Shown here: positions 21,343-60,291 of the stretch, piece by piece
Position numbering within the stretch: the first letter of the stretch is position 1
How the letters are laid out: each line of letters starts with the position of its first letter
NCBI GenBank assembly: GCA_038874595.1
Contig: JAVZCB010000006.1
Span: 9,599-73,598, forward strand
Length of the DNA stretch: 64,000 nucleotides
Reading direction: 5' to 3'
Source: Candidatus Micrarchaeia archaeon
GTDB lineage: Archaea; Micrarchaeota; Micrarchaeia; CAILAH01
Notes under the pieces: model-generated
Seen by the model: only the letters and a program-made list of their open reading frames with translations
Database searches by the model: none
What the model was told of the DNA's origin: nothing
Translations under genes and position numbers: made by a program

Positions 21343-21346
21343 ATGT

Positions 21347-30207: not shown

Positions 30208-30858
30208 TCACTTTATGTTATAATTCTGGAGCATTGCAAGTGACACAATGGCACATATGAATAACACTATCCCTGCAATACACCCCTTTTCAGCACCGCT
30301 TTTGGATATATCGTCAACAGATTCATTTTTTGGTAAGCTTGAATTTCCGTGGCTAATCGTGTTATCAGATATGGCTTTCTCATCACCAGCTTTATTTTGC
30401 TCTTGTGTGAGGTATGCATAGACCTTTACGCTCACTGTAAGATTCCCTATGTTATCCACATAATTTGTGTAAGTGGAGCCTTTCGGCTCATAAATCCCAA
30501 GCGCCAGCCTGCCCCTATTTGTTGCATATCCTTCCCAGTGGCTGCCGATTGGAAACACATCACCATCACCAAACTTGCCTTGCAGCATCCCAGGCTTGAA
30601 CGTCGTGAACACGTTTGAAAGCCCGTCCGGCCCGGTCTCGAACTGCGGCCGCGGGTCATACCTCCATTTTCCGGAGGCATCCACTACTACATACTGCCCG
30701 GGCTCAACATATACAGTTTCTGAGAATTGCACATTTGCAGGTATCTGGAACGTCCCGCTTTTCACAAGTGTCAAGTTGGCCGGTGGCGCGGCAAGCACCA
30801 GCGATGATATGAGAACTAATACGAATAGTGCTTTTGTATAAGTGCTATGTGATCCCAT
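30208..30858 (-). CDS. exported protein with a possible PA-IL/LecA-like beta-sandwich and a Cys-Gly C-terminal anchor
   Basis: Signal peptide ALFVLVLISSLVLAAPP. The core EPGQYVVVDASGKWRYDP...GMLQGKFGDGDVFPIG...GRLALGIYEPKGSTYTNYVDNIGNLTVSV loosely follows the LecA pattern. C-terminus EKGCIAGIVLFICAIVSLAML..K. Confidence 0.45.
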   Translation of the reverse strand: MGSHSTYTKALFVLVLISSLVLAAPPANLTLVKSGTFQIPANVQFSETVYVEPGQYVVVDASGKWRYDPRPQFETGPDGLSNVFTTFKPGMLQGKFGDGDVFPIGSHWEGYATNRGRLALGIYEPKGSTYTNYVDNIGNLTVSVKVYAYLTQEQNKAGDEKAISDNTISHGNSSLPKNESVDDISKSGAEKGCIAGIVLFICAIVSLAMLQNYNIK

Positions 30859-30916
30859 GGTAAATAATTACCGAAAGTGTATTTAAGCTTAACAGCTATA
30901 ATCACTCGGTGATTTT

Positions 30917-31504
30917 ATGCCGGAATTAAAGACGATAGATAACCTTGCAAAGGCGTTTATTGGGGAAAGCATGGCCCGGAACAGGTATACGATGTATGCG
31001 AGCATTGCGCGAAAGGAGGGATACCTTCAGATAGCTGATATATTCTTGCTTACTGCTGAGAATGAGAAAGAGCACGCTGAATGGAACATGCATATGCTTA
31101 ATGATTTGGTTGCAAAGACGGGTGTACATAAGGAAATCAACGTTGATAGTGAAGTCCCACGCACCGCGATGACCACGTTGGAAAACCTGAAGGCTGCAAT
31201 CGCAGGTGAAAATTACGAATTCACAAAGATGTACCCTGAGTTTGCAGATGTTGCTGAGAAGGAAGGGTTCCCTGAGATTGCAAGCAGGCTGCGTGCCATT
31301 GCAAAGGCTGAGAGCCATCACGAGGAGCGGTACAGGAAGCTCCTTGAGGTTGTTGAGAAGGGTGAGGTGTTCAAGAAGGGCACAAAAGTCCAGTGGGTGT
31401 GCTCAAAATGCGGCTATGTGCACGAGGGCAACACGCCGCCTGCACGGTGCCCATCCTGCGACCACGAGATGAACTACTTTACAGTGAAATGCGAGACGTA
31501 TTAA
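30917..31504 (+). CDS. rbr: rubrerythrin
   Basis: Diiron ferritin-like domain ([17 protein letters not shown]) plus a C-terminal rubredoxin CSKCGY...CPSCDH. Confidence 0.9.
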
Positions 31505-32220
31505 CGAAGTGTAAAATAAATCCTCTTATTTTCTTTTCCCTTGTTTTCGAGTTTTAGCACTATTAGCTCCCCAATCTCTTGTGTGTTTTTTACGTGTGTC
31601 CCGCCATCCGCTTGTATGTCAACATCAGGGATTTCAACAATACGCAGGACGGCGAGCGATGGCGGCAACGCATTGGCAAGCTTGACAATTCCCTCAATCT
31701 TAAGTGCATCATCGCGTGGGAGCGAATACACTTTAACCTCAATGCTCTTTTTGAATATCTCATTTGCTTTCCTTACGTATTCCTCCATTTTTTCCCTGTC
31801 AAACCCATCCATTGAGAAATCAAACCTGCTCTTGTCAACATCCAGCTGGTTACCGGTAATCTGCGCACCGCCTTCCTTGTAGAATATGCTTGCTAGTATA
31901 TGCGCAGCAGTGTGCATTCTCATAAGCGCGTACCTTCTCTGCCAGTCTAACACACACCTTACCAAATCACCAGGTAAAAAGCCAGGGGCATTAACTTCGT
32001 GCACAGCTTCCCCGTTCTCTTTTTTCACGGATACAACAACAAACTCCCTACCATCCTTTAACCGTATGATTTTTCCCTTATCGCTCGGCTGGCCGCCACC
32101 GCTCGGGTAGAATATAGTCTTATCAAGCACAATATGCCTGCCGTCACCAACTGATATTACAGAACTTTCGCACTCTTTCAGATAAGAATCATCCAGGTAG
32201 AGGAATTTCTGCCCGCCCAT
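31501..32220 (-). CDS. alaX: alanyl-tRNA editing protein AlaX
   Basis: MHTAAHIL and DGGTHV Zn motifs of the Thr/Ala-RS editing domain. Start trimmed to ATG 32220 ([11 protein letters not shown]) to avoid overlapping the upstream gene. Confidence 0.82.
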
Positions 32221-32236
32221 ATCACCACAAGAAACT

Positions 32237-33514
32237 TTAGTTAATTTTAAGTGTTTTAATCCCAAACCACCAGGCGTGCGGGTCCATCTTGGCAAGCGCA
32301 CGTGCCCATTTCTGTGCAGTAGCAGTTTTCAGCTTTGTCTGTATGCGCTTGACCCATTCGCGTGCGTGCACGTATCCCTTGAACTCATACTCGCGTGCAG
32401 TCACAAGGTTTTCCAAAAGGTCTGCGTCCATACATATATCAGCAATCTCCTTCTTGCCGAAGCAATCAAGCGCTTCAAGAACTTTCTTTTTCTTCTTTTC
32501 ATCTAAGCGCTCGGCCATATCATTGGCAGCCACTCTCTCAGAATCCTTCTTGTTCTCCCAGTACTTTGATGTGATTTTATTTATGTCACCTATCCTACAC
32601 TCGCCAAGCTCGTGCATCACAACTGCACTTGTGCATTTGTGAGGGTCTTTCCCCTCTTCAATAGCTAGCAGGTATGCAATCACTGATGCCCTAAACACGT
32701 GCTCTGCAACAGTCTCCGGAGAATCAACTTGGATGTGCGCCCACCCGGAACGCTGCGTATATTTCAGAACCCCGGTTTCATAAATGAATTTCATTTGCTC
32801 AAACGGGCTCTTCTTCTCGCTGGTTTCTACTTTATCGATAACCTCAAGCAAATTATTACCATCAGCTATCCATAAGTCATTTTCTTTGGCATACCTTGCA
32901 AGATCTGGTTTTGGATTTAGCGCGATTGGGTATGCAACACTTTCAAGCAGAGGTATATCGTGGATTGTATCGCCAAGTGCAAATGATTTTGAAGTGTCAA
33001 TCCCATTCTTTGTTATGATATCCGCTACGGCGCCAGCCTTGCCACTTTCAGGCTCGTGCAGTGCAGTGAGTATTTTTCCAGTGTATACTTCATTTATCAC
33101 TTCCAGCTCGGTTGCAATAAAATCGTAAATCCCGATGTGCTCAAGCACAAGTTTTGATGGTATAGCAGGTGATACAGTGATTGCAAATATCCTATACCCC
33201 TTATCCCTGAAATGCTTTACGAGCTGGAACGAGTATTCAGGAATGGTTTTTGAGAACGCAGAAAAAAACCTCCTTGCATACCTTATAAGCTCGCTTTCAT
33301 TCTTCCCTCTGATGGCCGCACCATACACAGCAACCCATTCGTGTGCAAAGTTTGGGTGGTCTATCAACCCGCTTTCGTATGCCTCAACTAGGTTTTCATG
33401 CTGGTTAAAAATTGATTCATCAATAATCTGGTTTGCGCCAAGGTATCTCATCCACGCAATACCTATCGAATCGCATAAAGTCCCGTCAACATCAGTTATT
33501 AGAGCCTTGCACAT
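32237..33514 (-). CDS. HAD-family phosphatase fused to an HD-domain (YfbR-like 5'-nucleotidase) module
   Basis: N-terminus ITDVDGTLCD ... ALGDTIHDIPLL (HAD motifs I/IV). C-terminus QRSGWAHIQVDSPETVAEHVFRASVIAYLL ... MHELGECRIGDI (HD). Confidence 0.75.
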   Translation of the reverse strand: MCKALITDVDGTLCDSIGIAWMRYLGANQIIDESIFNQHENLVEAYESGLIDHPNFAHEWVAVYGAAIRGKNESELIRYARRFFSAFSKTIPEYSFQLVKHFRDKGYRIFAITVSPAIPSKLVLEHIGIYDFIATELEVINEVYTGKILTALHEPESGKAGAVADIITKNGIDTSKSFALGDTIHDIPLLESVAYPIALNPKPDLARYAKENDLWIADGNNLLEVIDKVETSEKKSPFEQMKFIYETGVLKYTQRSGWAHIQVDSPETVAEHVFRASVIAYLLAIEEGKDPHKCTSAVVMHELGECRIGDINKITSKYWENKKDSERVAANDMAERLDEKKKKKVLEALDCFGKKEIADICMDADLLENLVTAREYEFKGYVHAREWVKRIQTKLKTATAQKWARALAKMDPHAWWFGIKTLKIN

Positions 33515-33557
33515 ATAACCACTAAAAAGAAAATTAGGTGTAAACTTTTAAAACTAG

Positions 33558-34070
33558 TCACTGCTTCCTGGCAATCTTACCAAATTTTGCATATGGCTTT
33601 TCAGTTGGGGACTCTAGCCGTTCAAAGTATACTTGAGATACCCGCTCACCCGCATACAGCTTAAGTGTGAATGGTGACAGGTTGGCAATCTCAAGTATCT
33701 GGTGGTTGTTTGAGCCCGGCTGTATAACTGCACTTGTCACGTGCACGGTCATTCCGAGCCGTGCAAACCTGCTCCTGCCCCCCAGTATCCCAATTATTGA
33801 GTTTGAAACACGTATCCTCTCCGCAGTTCTTGCAAGGCAGAACTCCTGTGGCCTGAGCACAACGGATTTTGCAATTACCTTTTTCATTAGTTTGTGCGGC
33901 TCCACCTTCTCAACAACATCAACTTCGCCGCGCACTTTCCGCGGGATATAAAACTCGTTTGAGAGCGCCAGGTCATATGACGCCTGGCTGATATATCTCT
34001 CATCAAAAGGGGATATCTCAATATTCCCTTTTGCAATCTCCTTTAGTATATCATTACCTGACAAGTACAT
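33558..34070 (-). CDS. dcd: dCTP deaminase / dUTPase-fold protein
   Basis: MYLSGNDILKEIAKGNIEISPFDERYISQASYDLAL ... GRSRFARLGM. Confidence 0.85.
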   Translation of the reverse strand: MYLSGNDILKEIAKGNIEISPFDERYISQASYDLALSNEFYIPRKVRGEVDVVEKVEPHKLMKKVIAKSVVLRPQEFCLARTAERIRVSNSIIGILGGRSRFARLGMTVHVTSAVIQPGSNNHQILEIANLSPFTLKLYAGERVSQVYFERLESPTEKPYAKFGKIARKQ

Positions 34071-34090
34071 GGTTGCACCCGCAGATATGC

Positions 34091-34378
34091 TTATGCTTTC
34101 TCAATCTTCCCGCTCTTGCCTGCTGATAATTGTTTTGTCCCTTTAAACTCTGAAACCCAGCCATTCGTAAATACTACCTTATCCCCTACCTTAAACTTGC
34201 CGGCATCGTCGTTCCAGAGCGATATCTTGATTTCACCGCTGTCATCCTTGATAGTTCCTGATGCAACCTTCATCTTTACGCCATACTTGTTCATTACCTC
34301 GCGCGGGCTCTCAAGGTCGATAATCTCACCCCTAATCTCACCCGTAACCGCTCCAACCTTTAATTCTGATATTTTCAT
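34091..34378 (-). CDS. single OB-fold nucleic-acid-binding protein (SSB/RPA-like)
   Basis: 95 aa. ...SGTIKDDSGEIKISLWNDDAGKFKVGDKVVFTNGWVSEFKGTKQLSAGKSGKIEK is the typical pattern. Confidence 0.7.
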   Translation of the reverse strand: MKISELKVGAVTGEIRGEIIDLESPREVMNKYGVKMKVASGTIKDDSGEIKISLWNDDAGKFKVGDKVVFTNGWVSEFKGTKQLSAGKSGKIEKA

Positions 34379-34484
34379 TTACACACCTTTGGCCTTTTGT
34401 GGCTGGTGTGCAATTAGCAGGCAAAGATTAAAAACAATTTGATGGTTTGTTTCCAAAAAAATGGAAAAATAAGTGTATCTTGCG

Positions 34485-35003
34485 TTACTGTACCTGGCTC
34501 ACCTTAGCGGTGTAAGACCCTTTAACGTACTTGTCTGCACCGTCATTATACTTGAGCATCACTTCACCGCTTGATACTTCGCCAATCTGTTTTGTGCTGC
34601 TGAACAGCTTGTTGTTACCGCCGGGGCAAGTGAACTCCTTAGATTCGCCAGGTGCGAGTGTTTGTGCACTCGAGAAAGGCGCATTCGTATCTATCCCACT
34701 ACCTTCCTTGCACGCAATCGCCAAGCTTGAGAGGGATATCGCCTGCTGGTTTGTTATCTTGAGTTTCAGGACACCATCCTGTGTAAGCCCTGCAACCTCA
34801 CACTTAAATCCTATCGGGAGGTTGCACGTATCCTGCAGCCTGCTTTGTGGGTTGAGCACGTTCAGGTATATCAGCGCACCGAGCACAAGCACAATCACAA
34901 GCAGTGCCCAGCCGTATGTCATTAAGTATTCCATTGCCGCCTGCCCGCGTAGGCCACGTGCCTGAATAGAGCTTCTTTCATTCTTAATCATGTAATACAC
35001 CAC
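34485..35003 (-). CDS. class III signal peptide (type IV pilin-like) protein
   Basis: ...ARGLRGQA/AMEYLMTYGWALLVIVLVLGALIYL. Confidence 0.75.
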   Translation of the reverse strand: MVYYMIKNERSSIQARGLRGQAAMEYLMTYGWALLVIVLVLGALIYLNVLNPQSRLQDTCNLPIGFKCEVAGLTQDGVLKLKITNQQAISLSSLAIACKEGSGIDTNAPFSSAQTLAPGESKEFTCPGGNNKLFSSTKQIGEVSSGEVMLKYNDGADKYVKGSYTAKVSQVQ

Positions 35004-35052
35004 TATTGAATGGGTAAAAAACCTTAAAAAGGTTGAACGGGCCTAAGCATTT

Positions 35053-35724
35053 ATGGGATTACTAAAAAGCAAAACCACTTATGATGCTCAAGATGCACAG
35101 GTATCAAGACACCGCAGATTTATTGGTGTTGCCGTTGCTATTGGCATAACCGCCGGTTCATTTTTATCACAGGGCGTGCTTGCAGAGAATGCGTACACGT
35201 GCAAGCATAACCCTGCTAAGGATGAGATAGTATATACATACAATGGCAAGTCACGGGCCGCTGGCATCTCGCATTTCTCTGGCCAGTTTGGCAAGCTGGT
35301 TTCATATTACTGCTCTGAGGATAGCACGTTCCTGCTGTTTGAGAAAGGGCTGGTGCGTGCCGGTGGCGGTGCACGGGTTATTAAAACAGGTGAGCTTTCA
35401 ATGCCATTCCCAGGTGACCCGACAAAAGTTATTGAAGGAAGCGTGCTTGACATCTTTGAAGGCACCGCTGTGAAAGGCAGGATAGAATGGGGCACGGTAG
35501 CAGTGGTCATTCTTGATTCAAAATCCATACTCGTGATAAAAAGAATAAATGAGCGGAAAGCCTCACAGCTGCAGACCCCCGTATTTCCTGATATTGACCT
35601 TAAAAGCTGTGAAATCTCCGTGACTGGTGATCTCCAATCAACTAAGGTAGGTATAACTTCAAAAGGGTTTAGCAAGACACTCATCATTGAAGGCACAACT
35701 TCAGAAAATATGGTATGGAAATAA
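35053..35724 (+). CDS. hypothetical exported protein
   Basis: 223 aa with an N-terminal anchor/signal FIGVAVAIGITAGSFLSQGVLA. No family recognised. Confidence 0.5.
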   Translation: MGLLKSKTTYDAQDAQVSRHRRFIGVAVAIGITAGSFLSQGVLAENAYTCKHNPAKDEIVYTYNGKSRAAGISHFSGQFGKLVSYYCSEDSTFLLFEKGLVRAGGGARVIKTGELSMPFPGDPTKVIEGSVLDIFEGTAVKGRIEWGTVAVVILDSKSILVIKRINERKASQLQTPVFPDIDLKSCEISVTGDLQSTKVGITSKGFSKTLIIEGTTSENMVWK

Positions 35725-35750
35725 AAAACAAGGAATAAAATAAAGCAAAA

Positions 35751-36716
35751 CTATGCGCGCAAGCGCGCAAGCGCCAGGCCTCCAATCACAGCAATCAGGA
35801 GTGCACCAACAGGGCACGTGTTCCCGGCAGGTTTTGGTATATTCTCAACACCAGGCACTATACCTGTATTCTTACCATCATAGCCGCCTGCTGGACCAGT
35901 TGCCCCAGTGTCGTGGTTCTCCTGCTCTACATTCTCTTCTCTATTATTTTCTGTTTCTGCCTGTGTTTCCTGTGCCTGCTGTGGCTCACACTTAATTGCA
36001 CCCATTTGTGCAACTGCATTGTCAGCCATATTCTTCACATCAATGAACTGGTTTTCTATATTCTGGAAGCTGCACTGCGCGACACGCAGCTTCAATGAGT
36101 TAAGCAGCCTTTCACACTCCATTACAGTTGCGGTGTATCCCTTGTCAGCACAGCACGGGCACGCCGCAAGTGCCGCTTTTGCATTACTCACGCTTTTCTC
36201 TGCATCGTACACCTTAGGCATCAGCTTCTTCTCAAACTGTGTCTCAGTGTGTATAATCTTTAGTGGCATATTGTAAACCAGCTGTTCCTGTGATTTCCTG
36301 CACACTGCCCTGAACACCGCCCACTTATCGAGCTCTTCAGTGCCGCTGCCTTTCCCACCGAACAAGATATTGAACGTTAGCTTGCAATCATCATTGCCAC
36401 TGATGGAGCACGCGAACTTTTCATCAGTGTATGTCCCCGTTGAGAAGTCGTAGTAGGAATAATACACATCCATCTGGCCAGTGCACGTGCTTGGATAATT
36501 CATTCTCATAGTTATAGGTGTCACTTGAATTTCAAGCGGCATATCGCAGTTTCCTATATCGAGAACCGTGTTATCACTTATCATCCTACCCCTTGCACCA
36601 TCAATCCCCTTGATTGATACGGTGAACGTGGTCCCAGCTGCACCAAGCGTTATTAGGAGCAGCAGCATTGCACACACATATGTATCCATAACACCTTGTT
36701 TAATATCCAATTTCAA
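35751..36716 (-). CDS. hypothetical exported Cys-containing protein with a Cys-Gly C-terminal anchor
   Basis: Signal MDTYVCAMLLLLITLGAAG, an acidic Q/E/N-rich stalk, and C-terminus GNTCPVGALLIAVIGGLALARLRA. Confidence 0.55.
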   Translation of the reverse strand: MKLDIKQGVMDTYVCAMLLLLITLGAAGTTFTVSIKGIDGARGRMISDNTVLDIGNCDMPLEIQVTPITMRMNYPSTCTGQMDVYYSYYDFSTGTYTDEKFACSISGNDDCKLTFNILFGGKGSGTEELDKWAVFRAVCRKSQEQLVYNMPLKIIHTETQFEKKLMPKVYDAEKSVSNAKAALAACPCCADKGYTATVMECERLLNSLKLRVAQCSFQNIENQFIDVKNMADNAVAQMGAIKCEPQQAQETQAETENNREENVEQENHDTGATGPAGGYDGKNTGIVPGVENIPKPAGNTCPVGALLIAVIGGLALARLRA

Positions 36717-36733
36717 GTCTCGACCTTAACCTT

Positions 36734-37972: not shown

Positions 37973-38033
37973 ATCAACACCGGTTAAAATAGCCTCACAA
38001 TTCTTTTAATGCTTAGCATCCCTATTAAGCGGG

Positions 38034-38228
38034 ATGAAGGTTATAATTGATGGGAAGCCGTTCAGGAAAAGCGTGCGCTCCGTTAAGACGGTTGCAGAGC
38101 TGCTTGAGGAAGTGGGAGTTTCACGTGAGAATGCGGTTATCATAATAGATGGTAAGATTGTTACTGAATTTGATTCGGTCGGCCAGGCATCTCGCGTCGA
38201 GATAATAAGGGTATCATCAGGTGGGTAA
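38034..38228 (+). CDS. ThiS/MoaD-family ubiquitin-like sulfur carrier (TtuB/SAMP-like)
   Basis: 64 aa with a beta-grasp pattern, ending in the diagnostic ...IRVSSGG Gly-Gly. Confidence 0.75.
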   Translation: MKVIIDGKPFRKSVRSVKTVAELLEEVGVSRENAVIIIDGKIVTEFDSVGQASRVEIIRVSSGG

Positions 38229-38229
38229 T

Positions 38230-39150: not shown

Positions 39151-39344
39151 TGAAAACATATAGGAAAACACATAAATGAAAACATTTAAAGAGAGTACAT
39201 TATTATCTTCTACTTGTACTAAGTAAAGTGTAGAATGGATGCAGGCTAATACACATAGCCGCAAAAGGATTGTTCGCAGCCTATCACGTTTTTATATGTT
39301 TTGCATTTTAATAGTGCATTGGTATTCTATTATATAGGTGATAT

Positions 39345-40079: not shown

Positions 40080-40083
40080 AAGT

Positions 40084-40782: not shown

Positions 40783-40798
40783 TTATGAAGGTGAATTT

Positions 40799-42176: not shown

Positions 42177-42181
42177 TATTA

Positions 42182-43963: not shown

Positions 43964-44317
43964 ATCTTTTTTTCATGATTTTGTTTTAATAAATGTTATG
44001 TTTTAGCGTTTCTTGGATAATTTGCATGTGCATCGCCAGCGTAACAAATGCAAAATTGTTATTCACAAACATTGTTTCATCAATTTACGTGCGCCCTCAA
44101 CCACAAAGCCTCAATGCTTGTTTTTGTTTGAAATCACCACGTCGACAGGCCAATTTGATTTCCTTGCAATTTTAGGCTTCCATTTTATGAGATCAGCATA
44201 GTCACACCGTCTCTTATTGCATAAACGCACTAAGCTTTTGGCACGCTGCTTGCCACGGCTTCACAATAACTTTTCGTGCATTTGTATGCTTATAAGTGTT
44301 TTTACATAACTAAAGTT

Positions 44318-45118
44318 ATGAAACCCATCAAGCAGGTATTGTTTTTTTTGTTGATTTATACCACGGTTGCTTTTTCGTACATTAATGAGGCATACCAGTG
44401 CCCAGGGTTACCTGAGGGCAGTCACGAGCGTGAGTATGATTGCATAATGGTTGGTGGAATGCCTTGCATGGCAACAACCATCCCTGGTGTATGCGAAGGC
44501 GAGCCGGACCCTAACCATCCTGAATGGGGGCCGGTTGCGTGGTGGAGTGTTTCTGATGGCACTGAGAAATGCAACTGCCCATATACGCTTGCAAACAAGT
44601 GCTACGGCAAGTATGATGATCCTAATTTTTGCCCAAGAACAGTTTGCATTGGCACGACAATAAAGAAAAACGGTAGATGCGACCCTAAAACTGGGGGCTG
44701 CGCTTATGATGAAGGGTACTGTGAATTTGGGTGCAATGCGGAAGGGACAGATTGTGCATTGGAAAAGCCAGCTAAACCATCTGAAGCTTACCAGAAAGGT
44801 GATGGCATATGCTCAATCACCTTGGGTGAAAGGTGTGATAATAGCCCGCAGGATTGTATTTGTATAGGTGGCAAGTCGTGCAAGCCGAACGCCCAGGATG
44901 CGGATGATGCTGGGTGCGCACGTGATATAAATAGCGAATGTGGTGACGAGTACCATTACTGCGATACAGCTGCTGGTGAGAATTGTGCAACGTGCAGTTC
45001 TGACTGCAAATGTGATGCCGGCTATGTGTGCAACCCAACCTCTGCGGATGCAAATTATATGGGCTGTGCAAGGATAGAAGCGAAAACGGAGGAGGGGGGA
45101 GATCGTATGTGGCAGTGA
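44318..45118 (+). CDS. Cys-rich exported protein, probable N-terminal part of a frameshifted gene
   Basis: Signal MKPIKQVLFFLLIYTTVAFS. Repeated GE(R/N)C..(P/S)(Q/S)DC.C..G..C.P......(A/M)GCAR modules. Stops 19 nt after a G6 run while the next frame stays open. Confidence 0.6.
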   Translation: MKPIKQVLFFLLIYTTVAFSYINEAYQCPGLPEGSHEREYDCIMVGGMPCMATTIPGVCEGEPDPNHPEWGPVAWWSVSDGTEKCNCPYTLANKCYGKYDDPNFCPRTVCIGTTIKKNGRCDPKTGGCAYDEGYCEFGCNAEGTDCALEKPAKPSEAYQKGDGICSITLGERCDNSPQDCICIGGKSCKPNAQDADDAGCARDINSECGDEYHYCDTAAGENCATCSSDCKCDAGYVCNPTSADANYMGCARIEAKTEEGGDRMWQ

Positions 45119-45173: not shown

Positions 45174-46082
45174 TTGGTTCCTGCGGATTATTCAATGGTC
45201 CCTGTTAGATGCACTGAAGGAGTACGGTGTACTTATGCGCCGGCAATGTACTGCAAGACGGGTTGCAATAGCAATACAGGCAAGTGCCTGCCAGAAACTG
45301 CAAGTGCAGATGGGTGCATTGAGGACGGTGAATATGTAATCCAGTCAAGTTCTGGTAAATTGCCGGTAAAGCGTGTAATCAACAGGGATGGTGCATCTGA
45401 AATAACAACATTACAGCTGCTAAACCACGCCAAGCACTGCGTTGGAGATTACATATCAACTGATGCGGATACGAAAGTTTGGATAAGGCACAAGAATGGC
45501 ATGATTTCTTACATAGGGCCGGGCTCGCAGTATATTGACGGTGCGCGCGGCAAGAATGTTATAGAGGCAAAAGGCAAGGTGCAAGTAAAAAACCCAGGCG
45601 CACCAACCGAGGAGGAAAAAGGTATTGTTACGCTAGTTCCTCTGCAAATTGCCGCTGAGATACAACAAGGAACTGATTATGGTACTGTTTCCCATATTCA
45701 TCCTGACTTGAGAGATTTCTACATAAAGAATACATTAAAGGGAGGTCCTATTGACATATGGATATATAACCAGCACTCTAACGTTATATACGAGATATAT
45801 GATGACTACGAAACTGTAACTGTGCTTGAAGGAGAAGTTGTTGCAATAGACCTGAAAACAAAGAAACAGTTTTCAATTACAGCCGGAAAACAGCTAACAC
45901 ACAAGCTCGGGCAAGAGGTTGGGCCAAACGTCGAGGAAAACATTAAAGATGTAGATTTAAATAAGATTGAAGATAACTCAACACCTCCAGAGCAAGGAGT
46001 AAGCACGAGCGGTGGTATATGTACAATTGGGTTGAGTATGGTCTTGATTTTGGGAGGTCTCTATATAATAAAAAAGGATTGA
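45174..46082 (+). CDS. Cys-rich / FecR-like beta-sandwich protein with a C-terminal anchor, probable C-terminal part of the same gene
   Basis: Its frame is open from 45078 and encodes more Cys-rich sequence (EIVCGSEVCKRFCLKDY...) before the listed TTG. It has no signal peptide of its own. FecR-like VGDYISTDADTKVWIRHKNGMISYIGPGSQY. C-terminus GGICTIGLSMVLILGGLYIIKKD. Confidence 0.6.
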   Translation: MVPADYSMVPVRCTEGVRCTYAPAMYCKTGCNSNTGKCLPETASADGCIEDGEYVIQSSSGKLPVKRVINRDGASEITTLQLLNHAKHCVGDYISTDADTKVWIRHKNGMISYIGPGSQYIDGARGKNVIEAKGKVQVKNPGAPTEEEKGIVTLVPLQIAAEIQQGTDYGTVSHIHPDLRDFYIKNTLKGGPIDIWIYNQHSNVIYEIYDDYETVTVLEGEVVAIDLKTKKQFSITAGKQLTHKLGQEVGPNVEENIKDVDLNKIEDNSTPPEQGVSTSGGICTIGLSMVLILGGLYIIKKD

Positions 46083-46100: not shown

Positions 46101-46388
46101 TCACTTTTTTATTAAAATGAGCAATAGCAAGGTCCCTAGTATAAACGCACCTATTTTACATTCAATTGGATTTTTGATATCGCTCTTATCGATATGCCCT
46201 GAGTATTTATTAATGGTTTCAGCCGTGCAGTTTGAAACACATTCATTATAGCCTGGCTGTGGTTTCCAGCACCTGTCCCATTCCTTATCCCATTTTCCCT
46301 TGTAATCTTTGCAGCATTGCACCTCGCAATTTGTGCCTGCAAAAAGAAGGCCTGCAAGCAATACAAGTATCAGTATTGTTTTAAGCAT
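46101..46388 (-). CDS. small Cys-rich exported protein with a Cys-Gly C-terminal anchor
   Basis: Start set to ATG 46388 (MLKTILILVLLAGLLFAGTNC), with a TATA-like TTTTAAAATT 24-36 nt upstream. C-terminus PIECKIGAFILGTLLLLILIKK. Confidence 0.6.
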   Translation of the reverse strand: MLKTILILVLLAGLLFAGTNCEVQCCKDYKGKWDKEWDRCWKPQPGYNECVSNCTAETINKYSGHIDKSDIKNPIECKIGAFILGTLLLLILIKK

Positions 46389-46446
46389 ATTATCCCCCAT
46401 AATAATATCTCTATTAATTTTAAAACAGGAAGCACGCATATTTAAT

Positions 46447-49140
46447 TTATAATCCAAACAGCTGCTTGGCCAGGTCAAACAAGTAATTGAAGATTCCTTT
46501 AAAGAAATCTAGCACCTGCTCGATAAATCCGGTTTTTTGGCCGCTTCCACCAGTTATGGTTGACGATTGTGATTCAACAATTGTTGAGAGTGTATACACG
46601 TCTAGCTTCCCTTTTTTATACTCACCATAGTACATTCCGGTTTCAGTGGCTTCCATACCCAACGGCATAACCTGCGAAAAACTACTCGCCTCAACAAGTG
46701 GATAACTTCTATCATAAATCTTTATTCCCATAGGCTCGTGCAACTCCATTACGTATCTCCCGCCAGGGGAAACAGATACATAGGTTAAATCCTTATTTGC
46801 ATAATGGCGCATCTTCCAATTCTCATAATACGTTATGGTATTGTATTTCCATGCAACAAAATCATCAGAATCAACGTAATCTCCCAGGACAATTTCATCA
46901 TTATATAGAATGCCTTCATTATCTTTATGGCCCATATGCTGCAAGAGATGATATGTTGGTGAATTAAGCGTGTAAACACAGAACAAATTATTGCATTCGC
47001 CAGCAACACGATTTCTGGAAACACCCAACTTTCTTATAGTAGTATTATGTGTTCCCCCTTTACAGTCATCATATGCCGAAAGCATACACCCATCAATGTA
47101 CCCATACCCAGGTGCGTAAAACCTGCCTGAGGAGGCTATAACATCAAGCAGCTCGGTCGCTGAAGAGTCAGTTAAACTTTCAGCATACTCCGGCCATTCC
47201 CACATCTCAATTACGTTTCCGTTTTGGTCAAAGAGGTATCCCTTAGGTGTTGTATCCCCTCTTTTTGCACTCTTTCTTGCTGCAATGCCCGCATACAACT
47301 TCGAGCCATCATATGCAGGTATAAGAGTTGATGCTTGCTTTCCTAAGCATATGCTATTTGTTCGGTATGAATATATCTCATTGCCGTTTGAAAGGTCATA
47401 TGCATAAATCTTGCAGAACAAGTCTGTTTTATCTACTGTTAAAACGTATGCATATTTGCCATTCTTGCTGAATTTGATTATGTGCGGTACTTCATTCTGG
47501 TAAGTTTTCGACCATAAAAGATTGGATTTGTTAAGCAGTACATAATCATCTATGGTGTCTGGTCTTAGGCATTTTATTTCCTGTGGAGGTAACCTGATAT
47601 CAAATGCGCTCTCGCTTGTTGTAAAATTCCTTATGAGTGCAGTACAATTTTGGGAGGTTATCACAATCGTGCCGCGCGTGCCTTTTATAGGCGCACTTAT
47701 TATCCCTTTTGCACTTTCTTCATTTGTCCCATTAATATTACCATACACCCCCCTATACTGCCCTTTATCGGTTAGGATATTGTACCATCCTTTTGATGGA
47801 TAGCCAACATATATATCTTTGGGCTTTTCAACAAGTACAAAATCAACATACTTATAGATATAATGAGCGTGCGTTATATCGCTTCTATTATAATTGAACT
47901 GTATTGCTGTTGAGCTATCTAAGTAGCCTGTTTTGTGTGCTGTTAATGTATATTTACCCTCCATTGTAAATGGCCGCAGGTGCCTAAATGTATATGACCC
48001 ATCTGCACGTGTTGTTACAGGTGTTTTGCCATTATCTATGTAAACGCTTGCGTTTGGGATTGGGTTCCCAAGCTCATCAGTAACCTTTCCTTCAACGATC
48101 AGAAATTGCGGATTTAGGTAAACTGTTTTGTAGTCTATCAAATTATTATCTGCATCTGTTATTTCAATCCTAACATAGTCCGGGTATGCGTCCAGGCAGA
48201 GCACTTCCGTGCTGAAAGGTATAGTTTCATTGGCGCTTATTGTGAAATCATTAAATGAATACCTCATATCCCCAAGGTAGTAGCTTATGTAATAATTGCC
48301 AGGTAGTTCACCGCGGTTTGTTACATTGACCTTAATTTCAAACTTATTTGTATACGGCTCAATACGACGATATATGATTGGGCCATCAAAAAATGCATCT
48401 GGTGGAAGTGGCAGGTCATCAACTATTAGCTTATAACTATTGTATGAAGAATGCTCATCACCGGCTTCAACAATGTTTGAGTCTGAAGGCTCAACAACAA
48501 CTTTTACAACATTGAACATATCCTTCTGGTGCTCCCAGGGTATGCTGAAGCTCTTTTCGTACCAGCAATTAGGATATGGAACATATGCTGGGTTGTAAGG
48601 AGTTATGCATGTTAGTTTTTCTGTGTGTATTAGCCTCATAGGAGGGTCAAGATTAACTTTGTCATCATAACCAGCATAGATGTAAACGTCTGCACTGTCT
48701 ATATAAGCAAAACCAGCATTGATTACACGGACATATAACCTCTTATCTTTCTCTATATATTTCACGGTGTCACTTGCAACAACCAAATCTGGTGCAAATG
48801 ATTTATCATCCAGTGCACATTCTTCTTCACATCTTTTTATGATAGGCACAATATATGCATTAATATCATGAGCGCATTGCAGCGATTTCATAACAGTCAT
48901 AAAATCAGGCCCGCGAGTAACATAACTTGCCCATGCATTAACAATATCCAAAAACATATCCTTTGTACCGTATGAGCACCATTTAGTTATAAATACGTAA
49001 GCAGGGTTTTGCCTCCACGCCAACGTATATGCGGCACATTGTGAAACGCAAATATCGTATTGGCTCGCAGTAGCCGCAGCATAGTATGAGCTTAACAAAA
49101 CGCAAAGTACAACTAGGATTTTGAAGTATCTCGCGGTCAT
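46447..49140 (-). CDS. large exported protein (897 aa) with a carboxypeptidase-regulatory-like Ig-fold segment
   Basis: Signal FKILVVLCVLLSSYYAAATA. EGKVTDELGNPIPNASVYIDNGKTPVTTRADGSYTF is a CarboxypepD_reg-like motif. The rest is unrecognised. Confidence 0.6.
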   Translation of the reverse strand: MTARYFKILVVLCVLLSSYYAAATASQYDICVSQCAAYTLAWRQNPAYVFITKWCSYGTKDMFLDIVNAWASYVTRGPDFMTVMKSLQCAHDINAYIVPIIKRCEEECALDDKSFAPDLVVASDTVKYIEKDKRLYVRVINAGFAYIDSADVYIYAGYDDKVNLDPPMRLIHTEKLTCITPYNPAYVPYPNCWYEKSFSIPWEHQKDMFNVVKVVVEPSDSNIVEAGDEHSSYNSYKLIVDDLPLPPDAFFDGPIIYRRIEPYTNKFEIKVNVTNRGELPGNYYISYYLGDMRYSFNDFTISANETIPFSTEVLCLDAYPDYVRIEITDADNNLIDYKTVYLNPQFLIVEGKVTDELGNPIPNASVYIDNGKTPVTTRADGSYTFRHLRPFTMEGKYTLTAHKTGYLDSSTAIQFNYNRSDITHAHYIYKYVDFVLVEKPKDIYVGYPSKGWYNILTDKGQYRGVYGNINGTNEESAKGIISAPIKGTRGTIVITSQNCTALIRNFTTSESAFDIRLPPQEIKCLRPDTIDDYVLLNKSNLLWSKTYQNEVPHIIKFSKNGKYAYVLTVDKTDLFCKIYAYDLSNGNEIYSYRTNSICLGKQASTLIPAYDGSKLYAGIAARKSAKRGDTTPKGYLFDQNGNVIEMWEWPEYAESLTDSSATELLDVIASSGRFYAPGYGYIDGCMLSAYDDCKGGTHNTTIRKLGVSRNRVAGECNNLFCVYTLNSPTYHLLQHMGHKDNEGILYNDEIVLGDYVDSDDFVAWKYNTITYYENWKMRHYANKDLTYVSVSPGGRYVMELHEPMGIKIYDRSYPLVEASSFSQVMPLGMEATETGMYYGEYKKGKLDVYTLSTIVESQSSTITGGSGQKTGFIEQVLDFFKGIFNYLFDLAKQLFGL

Positions 49141-54437: not shown

Positions 54438-55990
54438 GAGTATTCACCCATTTTAAGAACTTCTTTTTCGGAAAGGCCTGCTATAAACTTGCCACGATTT
54501 TTCAGCAATTCCTCATTCTCAAGCGGTGGCAATATTTCATTGTTGATCGTAAAATTTCCTCTCAGTAGTGAGAACAGGTATGTTATTTCAAAGTACGTAT
54601 CTGGTAATTCTACCTTATACTCCAACCCGCCTGGCGCCCTGAAAAGCTTAACGAACCTTTTGTAATCCTGATTAACATACCTGAGCTGCGACTTGCCAAA
54701 TGATAGTATCTCCTGATTTGAATAAGTTGATATAAATGGCCATTGGTTAATCATCTTGTCCCTAAATACTCCAATTAATATTCGTCCATCACTTGAAAAT
54801 ACAAGTGGGGAGTATCCAGGCCTGTCAAGAAAACTTGGGTATCTTAAATCAATGATATCATTATTCTTGATATCTAAAAATGCGTTGCTTAGGTAAAACC
54901 CATTCCTTTCAAGCTCAAAAACGGCCTCAAGCGGGTTGCGTATGCCCTTGCCTAGGAGCGATTTTGTTAACACGAAAATCCCATCATCATTGAACTTGTG
55001 CTCTGAAGATGTAAGTACCCCATCGGTCTTTCTTTGTGAAATTTTTTCTGCAATACCTATTGGATTACCAAACCCCACATAAAACTTGACGCCCTCCAAG
55101 CCCGCAAGAAGGTCTGCGTGCCATTTTATAATAGAGTAGTCTGTTATTGTGGGCGGCATAGGCTCTTTTAACGTTACAAAGTATCTACCATCCCCCCTGT
55201 AATATTGTGATATAAAGTATAGCAGTCTATTCTGGCCATCACTTTTTGGAAGCTCATATAATTTACTTGTGCCAGGATAACAAAACGTAAAAAGTACATA
55301 TTTCAGTTTTGAGCTTGCATCATTCAATTCAAGGTTAAGTGTCTGCAGGTCCGATGGGCTTACCTCATATTTCAATATCTTCCTGTCGATTCGCTTTTTC
55401 TTTTTTATTCTTTTCTCAAATGTACGCAGCTTGCTTATATCCAAGACATCTGGGTACATCTTGCTAAGTTGTTTAAGTAATTCCAGGGTGATAGGCCTTA
55501 GATCTATATCGGTTGTGCCTCCAAGAACTTTACCGTTTTTTAGGTCTAGAATTGTCCTATCATTTGAGATAATGCTTGAAGAAGTCAGCAGTGAAATTAA
55601 AAACATCAGGGATGATTTGCCACTCCCCGCATCCCCCACAATAAGGCCGCATTCTTTTGAGTTTCCAACACACGCTGAATGTATAAGGGCGTTTCCAGAT
55701 AGCCCGTGCAACGCCGCAAGGTCCATAATCAGCTTATAAACAACATCCGGATAGTAAAGGTCTTCTGATATGCCGTAAATCCTGCTTTTTCCCACAATTT
55801 CTGATTTCTTACTGTTGGAACGGATCGACTGCGCGGGAGGATTATATTCGCATAAAACCTTGCAGCTGTATGAAGGAATGCTCTCGCGCGGAAAGAAGTC
55901 CTTTTCAAGATATTTAACCAATCCGGCGTTTTGTGTTTTGAAGCAGACCGTTTTGTTTTTTGAGCTGGCACGTATGTAATATTCACCCAT
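54434..55990 (-). CDS. HPr-kinase-C-like P-loop protein with an uncharacterised ~200-aa C-terminal domain
   Basis: NALIHSACVGNSKECGLIVGDAGSGKSSLMFLI parallels the HprK C-domain (H..av......gvLi.G.SG.GKS). I recognise no family for the remainder. Confidence 0.6.
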   Translation of the reverse strand: MGEYYIRASSKNKTVCFKTQNAGLVKYLEKDFFPRESIPSYSCKVLCEYNPPAQSIRSNSKKSEIVGKSRIYGISEDLYYPDVVYKLIMDLAALHGLSGNALIHSACVGNSKECGLIVGDAGSGKSSLMFLISLLTSSSIISNDRTILDLKNGKVLGGTTDIDLRPITLELLKQLSKMYPDVLDISKLRTFEKRIKKKKRIDRKILKYEVSPSDLQTLNLELNDASSKLKYVLFTFCYPGTSKLYELPKSDGQNRLLYFISQYYRGDGRYFVTLKEPMPPTITDYSIIKWHADLLAGLEGVKFYVGFGNPIGIAEKISQRKTDGVLTSSEHKFNDDGIFVLTKSLLGKGIRNPLEAVFELERNGFYLSNAFLDIKNNDIIDLRYPSFLDRPGYSPLVFSSDGRILIGVFRDKMINQWPFISTYSNQEILSFGKSQLRYVNQDYKRFVKLFRAPGGLEYKVELPDTYFEITYLFSLLRGNFTINNEILPPLENEELLKNRGKFIAGLSEKEVLKMGEYS

Positions 55991-57228: not shown

Positions 57229-58089
57229 TTAATTGGTTACATATTTATACGCTGCAAACGTTAGAACGCTTATTAGAAATATTAAACCACCTGCACACGC
57301 ACCACTTTTTTCTGTTTCATCATCGATTTTTTGTATGCCGCCTATACCTTTGCTGTCACTCGAAATAACCATCTGATTGTTTGTAAGCACTATTGATTTT
57401 CCATATTTGTCAGTAACCGTTACTTCCCCCTCAACAACTTTTACAGTGGTTTCCCCCTTAGCATTATCGTATGCTACATGGAATTTTGTACCTTTCACAC
57501 CTGTTGAAGTTGCACCCGATTTAACCCTAAATATAGTATCCCCTCTCTTTGTTACATCCGAAAAGATTGCTCCCTTAGCAAGCTCAATTATCACATCAAA
57601 CGTTGTAAGGTTTTTCCTCTTTAATTCCTTCATCTCAAGCTCGGTGTTCTCATCCATATACACCTTTGAGCCATCAGCAATATTCATTGTTATCTTACCA
57701 TCGCTTCCTGTTTTTACTGCCGATTTCTCATTTATAGGTATCTCAGTTACAATGCGTGCCCACTCACCGTTTGGCATCCGCAGGTATACATTCCCGGAAA
57801 AGCTAGCAAGCTTGGCAAATGCATTTTCAGTACCCCCTTTACCAACACCTACAACCGGCCCCTGTCCTTCCGCAGGGCAATAGCATATGCATGGCTCACC
57901 CTGTGGGCATTCGCAGGATACATATGCATGTGCTTTTTCGCTCCAGCTGCCTGTACAGCTTGAAATACACGGTATCCCATTCACACCGCCGCATAAGAAG
58001 CAGTCTTTTGAGCCTGCCGGGCAGCTCCCAGCATATGCAAAAGAGACGAATATGGAAATGATTATTAACCAAACTACAGCTGGTCTCAT
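57229..58089 (-). CDS. exported Cys-rich + FecR-like protein with a Cys-Gly C-terminal anchor
   Basis: Signal VVWLIIISIFVSFAYAGSC. Cys-rich head, then FecR-like GNVYLRMPNGEWARI...VKTGSDGKITMNIADGSKVYMDENTELE. C-terminus SGACAGGLIFLISVLTFAAYKYVTN. Confidence 0.6.
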   Translation of the reverse strand: MRPAVVWLIIISIFVSFAYAGSCPAGSKDCFLCGGVNGIPCISSCTGSWSEKAHAYVSCECPQGEPCICYCPAEGQGPVVGVGKGGTENAFAKLASFSGNVYLRMPNGEWARIVTEIPINEKSAVKTGSDGKITMNIADGSKVYMDENTELEMKELKRKNLTTFDVIIELAKGAIFSDVTKRGDTIFRVKSGATSTGVKGTKFHVAYDNAKGETTVKVVEGEVTVTDKYGKSIVLTNNQMVISSDSKGIGGIQKIDDETEKSGACAGGLIFLISVLTFAAYKYVTN

Positions 58090-58176: not shown

Positions 58177-59331
58177 ATGCGTGAAGCTGAGCGCATAGTT
58201 TTATTCATAGTTACAACCATTATAATCATACTCATCGCATTTGTTCTGGCTAGCCAACCTGTTATTTTAGAATCACAAAAAGCAAAAGAGATGCGTGCGC
58301 TCGTAGAGAGCTCGTCCCCGCTGGATACATCTCTCGCCAGAAAGGAAGTACTGCTGAAAGTTGATGAGTTTGCAATATCTACATTCCCATTTAGCAGTAT
58401 CCTAAGAAGTGTTTATTCATCTGAGTTTATGCAATTCTTCCATTCCAGGATAACAAAAGCCATCTCTGAAATCAGAGCTGCAAAAGTGCCAGCCGGTAAA
58501 GTACGCGTTTGGTACCTGTATAATATGGGGGTGGTTGCCAAGTCCGCGAATATCACGATAGGGTTTGATATTGGAGGCACATGGCTTGACCCGTCAATTG
58601 GAGAGCTTTCAAAAGATCTAGATGTATTGGTGATTACACATAACCACGCGGACCATTTCGACCCGGCAGTTGTCAAGGGTGTGCTCCAAAAAGGCGGCAT
58701 AGTAATTTTCCCCGGTGAGAAAGTATCTATAAGGGAGATTACATCAAGCGATGGCCTGCGGAAGACATACCTGATTGATAGGGATGAAAACGGTATCGAG
58801 CCGGCCGAGGCACTTGAAAAGATTTACGGAATCAGCCCGAAAAACGTAGTATTTCTGAAATCCGGCGAGACAGTTGATATCAGGGGCGTGCGTATAACTT
58901 CATATGCCGCAAAGCATTATGTTGATTGGGAACTGGATACAAAATGGGAGATTCTCCGCAATACTTCTGTCTCTTGGTTTTATGTGAACATTTCAAACAG
59001 GACTATTTTACATACGGGTGATGGGTATCTATTATATCGCGAAAAGGATTACGAGAGACTTGGAAATATGCCGATTGACATTATGATAATACATTATCCT
59101 GATGATCGTGCACTTGAGAAGTACTCTAGCTCACTTCATAAAGTGAAGCGAATAGTACCACTGCACCTTTACGAGTTTGGTCATGGATTGGAAGAGGTGT
59201 CCCTGAATATGCGATACAAACAAGCTCTTGAAAATTATGATAATGGGAAGCTCAGGTTTGCAGTTAGAAATATCGCCACTAACATCTCATACACTCCAAT
59301 GATTTGGGGTGAACATATAGATATTGGGTAG
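58177..59331 (+). CDS. membrane-anchored MBL-fold metallo-hydrolase
   Basis: N-terminal TM IVLFIVTTIIIILIAFVLA. LVITHNHADHFD is HxHxDH. TATA-like CTTATAAAAT lies 20-28 nt upstream of ATG 58177. Confidence 0.7.
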   Translation: MREAERIVLFIVTTIIIILIAFVLASQPVILESQKAKEMRALVESSSPLDTSLARKEVLLKVDEFAISTFPFSSILRSVYSSEFMQFFHSRITKAISEIRAAKVPAGKVRVWYLYNMGVVAKSANITIGFDIGGTWLDPSIGELSKDLDVLVITHNHADHFDPAVVKGVLQKGGIVIFPGEKVSIREITSSDGLRKTYLIDRDENGIEPAEALEKIYGISPKNVVFLKSGETVDIRGVRITSYAAKHYVDWELDTKWEILRNTSVSWFYVNISNRTILHTGDGYLLYREKDYERLGNMPIDIMIIHYPDDRALEKYSSSLHKVKRIVPLHLYEFGHGLEEVSLNMRYKQALENYDNGKLRFAVRNIATNISYTPMIWGEHIDIG

Positions 59332-59351
59332 TCCAATTTTTTGTTAATGGT

Positions 59352-59798
59352 TTACTCATTCTCAATAAATTCCCTTATGTATTTTTCAGATAAGCCGACA
59401 TCCCTTGCACCCTCGAGAACAACATTTTTATAGTTCTCGCTTGGTTTTCCTATTTTTAATGGTGCTCTCAAATATGCAAAAGCATGATAAATATTCCCAT
59501 CATCACCAATACACTCGATATTCTTTTTCTGATAAGCTGTAGGAAACCCTTCATACCAATCTAACGCTTTTTCACATTTATCATCTATCTCAAAGATCGC
59601 ACCCTCTACAATATCACCAGTAGATTCAACTATATTAGCAACAGCCCCTCTTGATGTTATAGAATTCCCATCATAAACAAACTTGTATCCAAACAATTTT
59701 GCCTTTGTTATGAACGTGGCACCCGGGCATCTTTTGCGCATTTGCCCCAAATTCATATTAGAACCGTATGCAAAGTAAAATTTACTCATTATAATCAC
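59352..59798 (-). CDS. gamma-glutamylcyclotransferase (AIG2/GGCT-like)
   Basis: FYFAYGSNMNLGQMRKRCP ... GAIFEID ... LDWYEG. Confidence 0.8.
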   Translation of the reverse strand: MIIMSKFYFAYGSNMNLGQMRKRCPGATFITKAKLFGYKFVYDGNSITSRGAVANIVESTGDIVEGAIFEIDDKCEKALDWYEGFPTAYQKKNIECIGDDGNIYHAFAYLRAPLKIGKPSENYKNVVLEGARDVGLSEKYIREFIENE

Positions 59799-59838
59799 CC
59801 AATCGTTTACGAATGATCTTCATATGCGTTAATTTATT

Positions 59839-60291
59839 CTATTTATTTACCGCATAAAGACCATAGAACCCTAAAACAAACAGGATCAAATATGCAGGGC
59901 CGGGGCATTGCCTTTCTACTTCGCCGCAATCAAATGCAGCCCATCTCATACACTCATCTGCAGAACTATAGCAAGCCATCATTTCATTCTGTTGGCAATC
60001 AAACTTATCATTGCCAGAAGATACCTCAGATATGCATTTTGATAATTTTGCCACGCATTCTTGTGGAGCATTGCATTCCCCTGCATAGTATTTTGCACTC
60101 ATGATTGGGTATTGTGCGCTTAGGCATGATAACCCGCTTGTTTTATACATATCCGAACATGTTTTATCCATTTTTCCTTTCTCATCAAATTTGCAGTTTG
60201 CGCATGCATTTTTGTATGCATCAAGAGAACAACCTGCCGTGACAACATTAAGCAGGAATATAACACCTAGAATAATCACGATATATTTCAT
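59839..60291 (-). CDS. Cys-rich exported protein with a Cys-Pro-Gly C-terminal anchor
   Basis: Signal MKYIVIILGVIFLLNVVTAGCS, about 14 Cys, C-terminus ERQCPGPAYLILFVLGFYGLYAVNK. Confidence 0.55.
   Translation of the reverse strand: MKYIVIILGVIFLLNVVTAGCSLDAYKNACANCKFDEKGKMDKTCSDMYKTSGLSCLSAQYPIMSAKYYAGECNAPQECVAKLSKCISEVSSGNDKFDCQQNEMMACYSSADECMRWAAFDCGEVERQCPGPAYLILFVLGFYGLYAVNK

Follow-up and report, generated by a model that had tools for sequence, protein, structure and literature searches.

Do exported proteins that share the same C-terminal architecture carry a sorting signal through which they would become lipid-anchored, or do they simply end in ordinary membrane anchors? The question is raised by a stretch of 64,000 nucleotides (nt; hereafter the window) from contig JAVZCB010000006.1 of a Candidatus Micrarchaeia archaeon, in which the initial annotation had noticed six proteins whose C-termini combine a Cys, a nearby Gly, a single transmembrane helix, and a short Lys/Arg tail. 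DPANN archaea live attached to other archaea, and their surface proteins form the interface of the symbiosis; we know of no account of how these proteins stay on the cell. A study of the S-layer (surface layer) of Ca. Micrarchaeum harzensis identified no anchoring motif.

The tail element described here is position-specific and conserved, occurs on unrelated exported proteins, and differs from the Cys-less anchors that these genomes also have. We would give an even chance to the reading that Micrarchaeota surface proteins carry it as a real tripartite signal for sorting or anchoring at the C-terminus, and that they would be lipid-anchored after cleavage; lipidation of the Cys, the cleavage, and the identity of the enzyme are the parts of this reading that we infer.

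The six tails and the proteins that carry them

Gene calls are the longest open reading frames (ORFs), and helix boundaries were taken from a simple hydropathy window. Translation reproduces all six tails at the positions first reported, and the carriers are as follows, with the span from Cys codon to stop given last.

30208..30858, minus strand: protein 1, 216 amino acids (aa); signal peptide, beta-sandwich, variable linker, and a tail from Cys193, C-IAG-IVLFICAIVSLAML-QNYNIK (30208-30282)
35751..36716, minus strand: protein 2, 321 aa as the longest ORF; Cys-rich and exported, tail C-PVG-ALLIAVIGGLALA-RLRA (35751-35816)
45174..46082, plus strand: protein 3, 302 aa as listed; no signal peptide of its own, tail C-TIG-LSMVLILGGLYII-KKD (46020-46082)
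46101..46478, minus strand: protein 4, an ORF of 125 aa; small, Cys-rich, and exported, tail C-KIG-AFILGTLLLLILI-KK (46101-46160)
57229..58089, minus strand: protein 5, 286 aa; signal peptide, Cys-rich module, FecR domain (PF04773), and tail C-AGG-LIFLISVLTFAAY-KYVTN (57229-57297)
59839..60336, minus strand: protein 6, 165 aa; Cys-rich and exported, tail C-PGP-AYLILFVLGFYGLYAV-NK (59839-59907)

The order of elements is common to all six ORFs: a Cys, two residues, a small residue, about 13 hydrophobic residues, Lys/Arg, and the stop. The hydrophobic run begins directly after the Cys in all tails, and each window protein ends 2-6 residues past its helix. This lack of a spacer between motif and helix is considered a hallmark of signals that are cut by membrane-embedded enzymes (Haft, bioRxiv 10.1101/2023.06.07.544157). 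The Cys itself, claimed to be invariant, is present before the helix in six of six window tails and is kept in orthologues of three families. The same cannot be said of the Gly that was thought to accompany it, which occupies position +3 (counted from the Cys) in five of the six tails; relatives have Gly, Ala, or Ser there, protein 6 has Pro and is the sole window tail with none of these three, and the position is better described as that of a small residue. The first charged or amide residue is found at +17 in four of the six. The basic ends (RLRA, KKD, KK, K.., NK, and ..K in the window, RR in most relatives) are weaker than the classical Arg cluster.

Outside the tails, all pairwise BLASTP comparisons of the six proteins give E >= 0.06; judged by this comparison the proteins are therefore not paralogues, and paralogy was rejected as the source of the shared tail. 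Nor does the element stop at the window. Other unrelated carriers were found among neighbouring genes in other metagenome-assembled genomes (MAGs; L002 16514, L013 7639, L013 11770, L012 2277, and L098 9255), which brings the tail to about ten unrelated protein families in total, one of them without any other Cys.

Conservation of the Cys can be followed in three families (family 1, family 2, and the FecR family), across the orthologues of which it is invariant despite a divergent linker, family 2 being represented by one orthologue. Family 1 consists of six sequences, protein 1 and five homologues of 54-68% identity, and Cys193 is both invariant (6/6) and the sole conserved Cys; the linker ahead of the tail has indels and little identity, and several residues of the helix are invariant. 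In family 2, the orthologue on the syntenic metagenome contig L016 (50% identity) keeps C-P-x-G and ends in ...GSPCPAGAIILFVLGGLALAKSVYL. Protein 5 matches the FecR domain with a Pfam E of 3.9e-17, and 18 of its 19 homologues end G-G-C-(C/G)-x-[AG]-helix-R/K, with C265 conserved in at least 90%. The one exception most likely lost its tail at the end of its 1.4-kb contig. Those homologues for which a source is named come from Candidatus Micrarchaeota/Micrarchaeia MAGs and from one 'Candidatus (I)ainarchaeum' MAG.

The FecR family also has an invariant N-terminal module, which reads FAG-x-C-P-x-G right after the signal peptide and then CFLCGGxxGIPC...C.C.Q...C.C.CP. Its members have a Cys two residues past the likely signal-peptide cleavage site, besides the one at the C-terminal helix.

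A signal peptide had been claimed for each of the six proteins and is clear in five. Protein 3, as called, has none, and one is gained only if a frameshift is bridged to the ORF that precedes it:

44276..45118, plus strand: Cys-rich ORF with 29 Cys and an N-terminal signal peptide; its stop lies just past a G-run

The G-run, GGAGGGGGGAG (~45090-45105), is situated at the junction of the two ORFs, the frame of protein 3 is open from 45078, and with one G fewer the two ORFs become one. From this arrangement, they most likely represent a single exported, Cys-rich gene of ~600 aa, interrupted by a frameshift or by an error of assembly; the run could be an assembly error, the mark of a pseudogene, or a slippage-prone switch. 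The upstream ORF has a Cys-rich module in common with an 831-aa protein of L012, which has a C-terminal Cys tail. Two other starts should be read with care, since protein 2 likely begins at an internal Met10 and protein 4 likely at an internal Met that would leave ~95 aa.

The AlphaFold2 model of protein 1 (predicted local distance difference test score, pLDDT, 59) consists of a helix at 4-22, strands from 29 to 149, a disordered linker of ~40 residues (152-192), and a helix at 187-214. The best Foldseek/PDB matches to the sandwich are the galactose-binding lectins PllA, EclA-N, and LecA (PA-IL), with E = 8e-4 and 18-23% identity from a low-confidence model, and the ectodomain of protein 1 may thus adopt a LecA/PA-IL-like lectin fold.

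Enrichment at C-termini and two classes of helix

Is a Cys at this position anything more than what any membrane helix of these genomes would show? The comparison was made in 13 loci of species-representative genomes, fetched with the FecR family as bait, and 80 metagenome loci, fetched with the proteasome alpha subunit as bait, comprising ~1 Mb and 1108 ORFs. A boundary Cys was counted if it fell within -6 to +3 of the N-side boundary of a helix, with Cys neutralised in the hydropathy scale. Such a Cys accompanies 27 of 547 polytopic or internal helices (5%) and 10 of 160 N-terminal helices (6%), together 37/707 (5%). Among C-terminal anchors it accompanies 18 of 26 by automatic calling and 20 of 26 (77%) by inspection, two window tails having been missed by the automatic boundary. 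The difference between C-terminal anchors and other helices is significant by Fisher's test with all sequences (p = 3e-19), with the FecR baits taken out (p = 3e-13), and with both baits and window taken out (7/11; p = 6e-7). In the window alone, six of the seven exported proteins with a C-terminal helix have the Cys, against the 5% background (binomial p = 2e-7). The initial annotation had staked its finding in advance on Cys being commoner before C-terminal helices than before others, and 77% versus 5% leaves that finding standing.

Position was also assessed with a strict regular expression, C-x-x-[GAS]-Phi(12-15)-[KRQNH]. It lies in the last 8 residues of 17 of the 28 proteins that match, where ~11% would be expected (residues in the last 30 make up 11%), an enrichment at extreme C-termini of the kind that the initial annotation had proposed to test. 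Reversed sequences, used as a control, gave 4 C-terminal matches versus 21.

These counts bear most directly on the possibility that composition alone is responsible, Cys-rich ectodomains placing a Cys near any C-terminal helix by chance. It is true that four of the six carriers in the window are rich in Cys (4-9%) and that the sequences had already been seen when the pattern was drawn up. Chance would nevertheless have to account for the 77% versus 5%, for family 1, where the only conserved Cys sits at the exact tail position in six of six, for the fixed spacing from Cys to polar residue, and for the reversed-sequence control; we regard it as highly improbable and, on these four grounds, effectively refuted.

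Alignment on the Cys refines the anatomy. Positions -3 to -1 are mostly Gly/Ser (polar or Gly) and +1 is Pro, Gly, or Ser; +3 is Gly or Ala in 23 of 26 tails, with Ser also seen in relatives; Gly is frequent at +11/+12, in the middle of the helix; and the first Arg/Lys comes at +17/+18. Nine of 14 representative tails have their first charged or amide residue at a distance of 16 from the Cys (mean 16.1, standard deviation 1.3). In the Cys-less C-terminal anchors that these genomes also encode, the hydrophobic span is 18-24 residues (mean 21; Mann-Whitney p = 0.0015) and the ends are stronger, of the RKKK type. The window has an example:

5960..7642, plus strand: exported protein of 560 aa with a Cys-less C-terminal anchor, a 24-residue hydrophobic span followed by RKED

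Other long Cys-less anchors occur in L002, L004, L013, and L064, and the reported absence of the tail from the exported proteins at 5960, 35053, 46447, and 60318 was confirmed. Because the Cys-headed spacing is ~16 and the Cys-less span 18-24, the C-terminal helices are, as far as these sequences go, of two classes, namely ordinary long anchors and a short, ruler-like element headed by Cys.

This division is what chiefly tells against the main rival explanation, that the tails are permanent, uncleaved type-I anchors. The juxtamembrane Cys would then serve an intermolecular disulfide or bind a partner or metal, and the small-xxx-small pattern and mid-helix Gly would serve helix packing or dimerisation. 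Such a role would suit the small residue at +3, the Gly at +11/+12, and the position of the Cys on the oxidising side of the membrane in proteins of which most have Cys-rich, disulfide-type ectodomains. It would also suit the weak basic tails and the lack of a processing enzyme in the window or among the sampled polytopic ORFs, and extra machinery may be missing from the reduced genomes of DPANN archaea. Uncleaved anchors would not be expected to keep to a short, fixed helix of ~16 residues when the Cys-less anchors beside them span 18-24, nor to recur as one element on some ten unrelated families, and the design is one shared with signals known or predicted to be cleaved. We hold this explanation to be possible at well short of even chances, since the short helix of fixed length and the range of unrelated carriers both speak against it.

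Eleven matches to the strict motif are not C-terminal, and six of them are N-terminal, in small paralogues of ~190 aa that have the element C-[IV]-[GAI]-[GA]-helix:

L036 8414-8980, L057 3871-4458, L076 4187-4774, L078 8459-9037, L080 2351-2938, and L011 1569-2150: paralogues with the motif at the N-terminus

Known C-terminal signals and the search for a processing enzyme

Four tripartite C-terminal signals that contain a Cys have been described, MYXO-, JDVT-, Synerg-, and CGP-CTERM, each paired with a protease of the CPBP/Rce1 type, and the order proposed for them is lipidation of the Cys followed by cleavage distal to it (Haft 2023, bioRxiv 10.1101/2023.06.07.544157). For MYXO-CTERM, cleavage and surface anchoring that depend on MrtX and on the Cys have been demonstrated experimentally (Guo et al. 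2025, PMC11980579). We have modelled the mechanism on this scheme because the tails share its design, with the Cys directly against the helix. A tail consists of a flexible linker of Gly, Ser, Asn, and acidic residues, the Cys, the small residue at +3, a helix of ~16 residues, one to three Lys/Arg at ~+17/+18, and the stop. The protein would be exported by Sec through its N-terminal signal peptide, and the C-terminal helix would halt transfer with the basic residues inside and the Cys at the outer face of the membrane. The Cys thiol would then be lipid-modified, for which thioether-linked archaeol is the archaeal precedent, and an intramembrane endopeptidase would cleave within the small-residue stretch just past the Cys, so that the mature protein would be kept on the cell surface through its C-terminal lipid.

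One close counterpart is CGP-CTERM (TIGR04288), with its protease MrtA (NF040590). It too is archaeal, ~20 aa long, with an invariant Cys abutting the helix and a basic end, and it too is found on many unrelated secreted proteins per genome, after a low-complexity, glycosylation-prone linker. The tails of P0002 and L009 spell C-G-P exactly and protein 6 reads C-P-G-P, C-G-P being only sporadic among the tails. CGP-CTERM, however, has an invariant Cys-Gly-Pro and an Arg cluster where the present tails have C-x-x-[G/A/S] and a Lys or weakly basic end, and it is described as exclusive to Thermococcales, whereas the tails belong to DPANN/Micrarchaeota and no MrtA or CPBP protein was seen in the window or sampled loci.

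Synerg-CTERM (TIGR04564; protease MrtS) resembles the FecR tails (S-G-G-C-...) in having a Gly/Ser cluster that ends in an invariant Cys and is followed by the transmembrane helix. It differs in being a signal of Synergistota, which are bacteria, and in its single Cys; the tails often have a doubled Cys (CC), gave no match to its hidden Markov model (HMM), and have no cognate protease in view. MYXO-CTERM (TIGR03901; MrtX, MrtC, and MrtP) is likewise tripartite with an invariant Cys, often two, but is longer, occurs in diderm bacteria, requires the type II secretion system (T2SS) to reach the outer membrane, and has no HMM match here.

The initial annotation had looked instead to exosortase/archaeosortase-type signals. 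PGF-CTERM, processed by archaeosortase A (ArtA), is indeed an archaeal, tripartite C-terminal signal; on surface glycoproteins the tail is removed and a prenyl-type lipid anchor takes its place. Its motif is Pro-Gly-Phe without a Cys, and its enzyme is a Cys protease of the exosortase family, whereas the present tails have no PGF motif. The tails gave no HMM match to PGF-, PEF-, VPXXXP-, or PIP-CTERM, and no archaeosortase (PF09721) was found in the window or sampled loci.

One might also compare the N-terminal lipobox of lipoproteins (processed by Lgt/Lsp in bacteria and AliA/AliB in archaea), in which a Cys flanked by small residues likewise stands at the outer end of a helix. The lipobox is N-terminal, has the opposite chain polarity, carries [LVI] at -3, and is cut before the Cys; these tails are C-terminal and would need to be cut after it. 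The tails do not show the pattern [LVI][ASTVI][GAS]C at an N-terminal signal peptide, their Cys starting the C-terminal helix with polar residues or Gly at -3 to -1. The best-supported placement would be in the Cys-type class (CPBP/Rce1, or 'myxosortase') rather than the archaeosortase class, because the Cys-containing precedents are CPBP/Rce1-type signals. What remains of the original proposal of an undescribed sorting or lipid-anchoring signal is thus a conserved, position-specific element on unrelated exported proteins, with the comparison redirected from archaeosortases to myxosortases. A literature search returned no account, for Micrarchaeota or for DPANN, of a signal of this kind.

Several results weigh against a processed signal. 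In NCBIfam release 20, no CTERM model matched the six proteins, the isolated tails, or 20 FecR homologues, with the caveat that matches to such short models below ~18 bits may escape the HMMER filters. Of the Cys-type models and their kin, TIGR04288, TIGR03901, TIGR04564, and NF033191 were matched neither by window tails nor by FecR homologues, and Pfam gave no sorting-signal match to the tails. Membership in a catalogued CTERM family was rejected for lack of an NCBIfam or Pfam match, under the same caveat; the tails are to this extent distinct from CGP-, MYXO-, and PGF-CTERM. The basic residues form a weak cluster (K, KK, NK), which the L016 orthologue of family 1, ending ...NSLE, lacks, and so the short Lys/Arg tail originally described holds for the window with some weak cases and does not hold throughout the relatives. 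The window was selected for the motif, and the bait with which several of the loci were retrieved itself carries the tail, so that the unbiased sample is small (7 versus 4). When a profile built from 17 tails was run against 1.84 billion representatives, 5 matches were listed at E <= 1e-3, of which 4 were of the FecR family and 1 a junk repeat translation; the tail alignment, run against a word-indexed library of 5.8 billion, produced 8000 candidates, all with E above 10. Libraries of this size put significance out of reach for a profile of 30 residues, which makes these searches uninformative on breadth; by sequence comparison, breadth is established within the fetched loci, and the large libraries added FecR-family members only.

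Equally on the negative side, a Pfam search of the window's polytopic ORFs identified no CPBP (PF02517), exosortase, or rhomboid, in agreement with the earlier remark that no sortase-like enzyme is recognisable there, and in the sampled loci, with 74 polytopic ORFs, none of the three was found by Pfam and a CPBP-motif regular expression. Those encoded in the window are two T2SS-F-like proteins, one DUF4870 protein, and two orphans (28163-28690 and 63244-63732), which have no relatives in Pfam or in a PDB sequence search. Clustering of the loci brought out no orphan membrane family that recurs beside tail genes. Neither the left flank (L102) nor the right Logan contig (L101) yielded more tails or candidate enzymes, the contig ending ~280 bp past the window. 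Housekeeping sorting enzymes are mostly encoded away from their substrates (Haft, bioRxiv 10.1101/2023.06.07.544157). Because such enzymes rarely adjoin their substrates and the scan covered the sampled loci only, we treat the null result as neutral on whether processing occurs.

Peptidases found among the sampled polytopic ORFs belong to M48, A24, M50, and M56. In L010, a Micrarchaeota MAG, a gene for a site-2 (M50) intramembrane protease (5185-6540) lies directly downstream of a FecR-family gene with a Cys tail, a single case.

AliA, which attaches archaeol to Cys by a thioether in archaea, has been reported in DPANN (PMC12462473). In all loci, 31 of 160 N-terminal signal or anchor helices (19%) have a Cys at the outer (C-side) boundary versus 5% of other helices, which is consistent with abundant lipobox-type lipoproteins in the sampled DPANN genomes. 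Taken together, the two observations make it plausible that lipidation of Cys at the outer leaflet is available in Micrarchaeota-type cells.

They also lend themselves to a variant explanation, in which the signal is processed by an enzyme other than CPBP, whether a divergent archaeosortase-like transpeptidase, a site-2 (M50) protease, or AliA-type machinery acting on a C-terminal Cys. The M50 proteases of the sampled loci, with the neighbour in L010, would fit, as would the reported AliA, the 19% of N-terminal segments that suggest Cys lipidation is probably in use, and the lack of any CPBP in the sampled loci. All four Cys-type C-terminal signals so far described pair with CPBP proteases, however, the hydrophobic -3 residue of a lipobox is missing and the chain direction reversed, and the M50 adjacency is a single case; we therefore consider this variant unlikely.

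Returning to the tripartite signal, we would tentatively suggest, at odds clearly below even, that Micrarchaeota (perhaps with adjacent DPANN phyla such as Iainarchaeota) own an undescribed 'G-C-x-x-[GA]' lipid-anchoring system. Its enzyme would be neither a recognisable CPBP protein nor an archaeosortase and might belong to the archaeal lipoprotein machinery, and its cargo would be variable lectin-like, FecR-domain, and Cys-rich proteins of host contact, many of them encoded in low-GC islands.

Were the tails to be such a signal, the anchored surface proteome of Micrarchaeota would become predictable from sequence by its C-terminal tag. The Cys-type class, which has four families of which one is archaeal and confined to Thermococcales, would then reach a second archaeal lineage. 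The tail offers a handle for an enzyme search by phylogenetic profiling, and the fixed 16-residue spacing and the small residue at +3 are testable determinants of specificity.

Genome context and other features of the window

The window holds an exosome/proteasome gene cluster. Synteny with the relative L016, the proteasome subunit of which is 85% identical, extends from 28715 to 42952 and is then lost. The region from 43000 to 64000 is a variable, low-GC island (GC 38-42% versus 45-47%) that has no counterpart in L016; tails 3-6 and other Cys-rich secreted proteins are encoded in it. The island also contains a cluster of other genes:

51601-53367: amidohydrolase
53364-54437: radical SAM protein
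54434-55990: P-loop-like orphan of 518 aa
56048-57228: two methyltransferases

Two tRNAs were matched by Rfam, and ARAGORN, which reported no tRNA in the window, missed both. The tRNA at 2743-2853 (plus strand) has the anticodon loop CUUGUAA and is probably Thr-UGU; its Rfam match covers 54 nt only, with the T-arm absent from the match. An insert of ~39 nt (~2802-2840) parts the T-stem/loop GTGGG-TTCAAAT from its partner strand CCCAC and the acceptor 3' strand CGGGGGC, and from its placement looks like a non-canonical intron in or beside the T-loop. The second tRNA, at 19082-19200 (minus strand), is 119 nt long, scores 59.8 bits in Rfam, and presumably bears an intron as well.

Parts resembling a type IV pilus are found at 799-2705, 19782-20246, 34485-35003, and 20292-21811, and comprise two T2SS-F/PilC-like membrane proteins and two pilin-like proteins. 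The latter have class III signal peptides (..GQGSIEYLL.. and ..GQAAMEYLMTYGWALL..). Small proteins with an N-terminal helix, encoded in a row, are present in addition.

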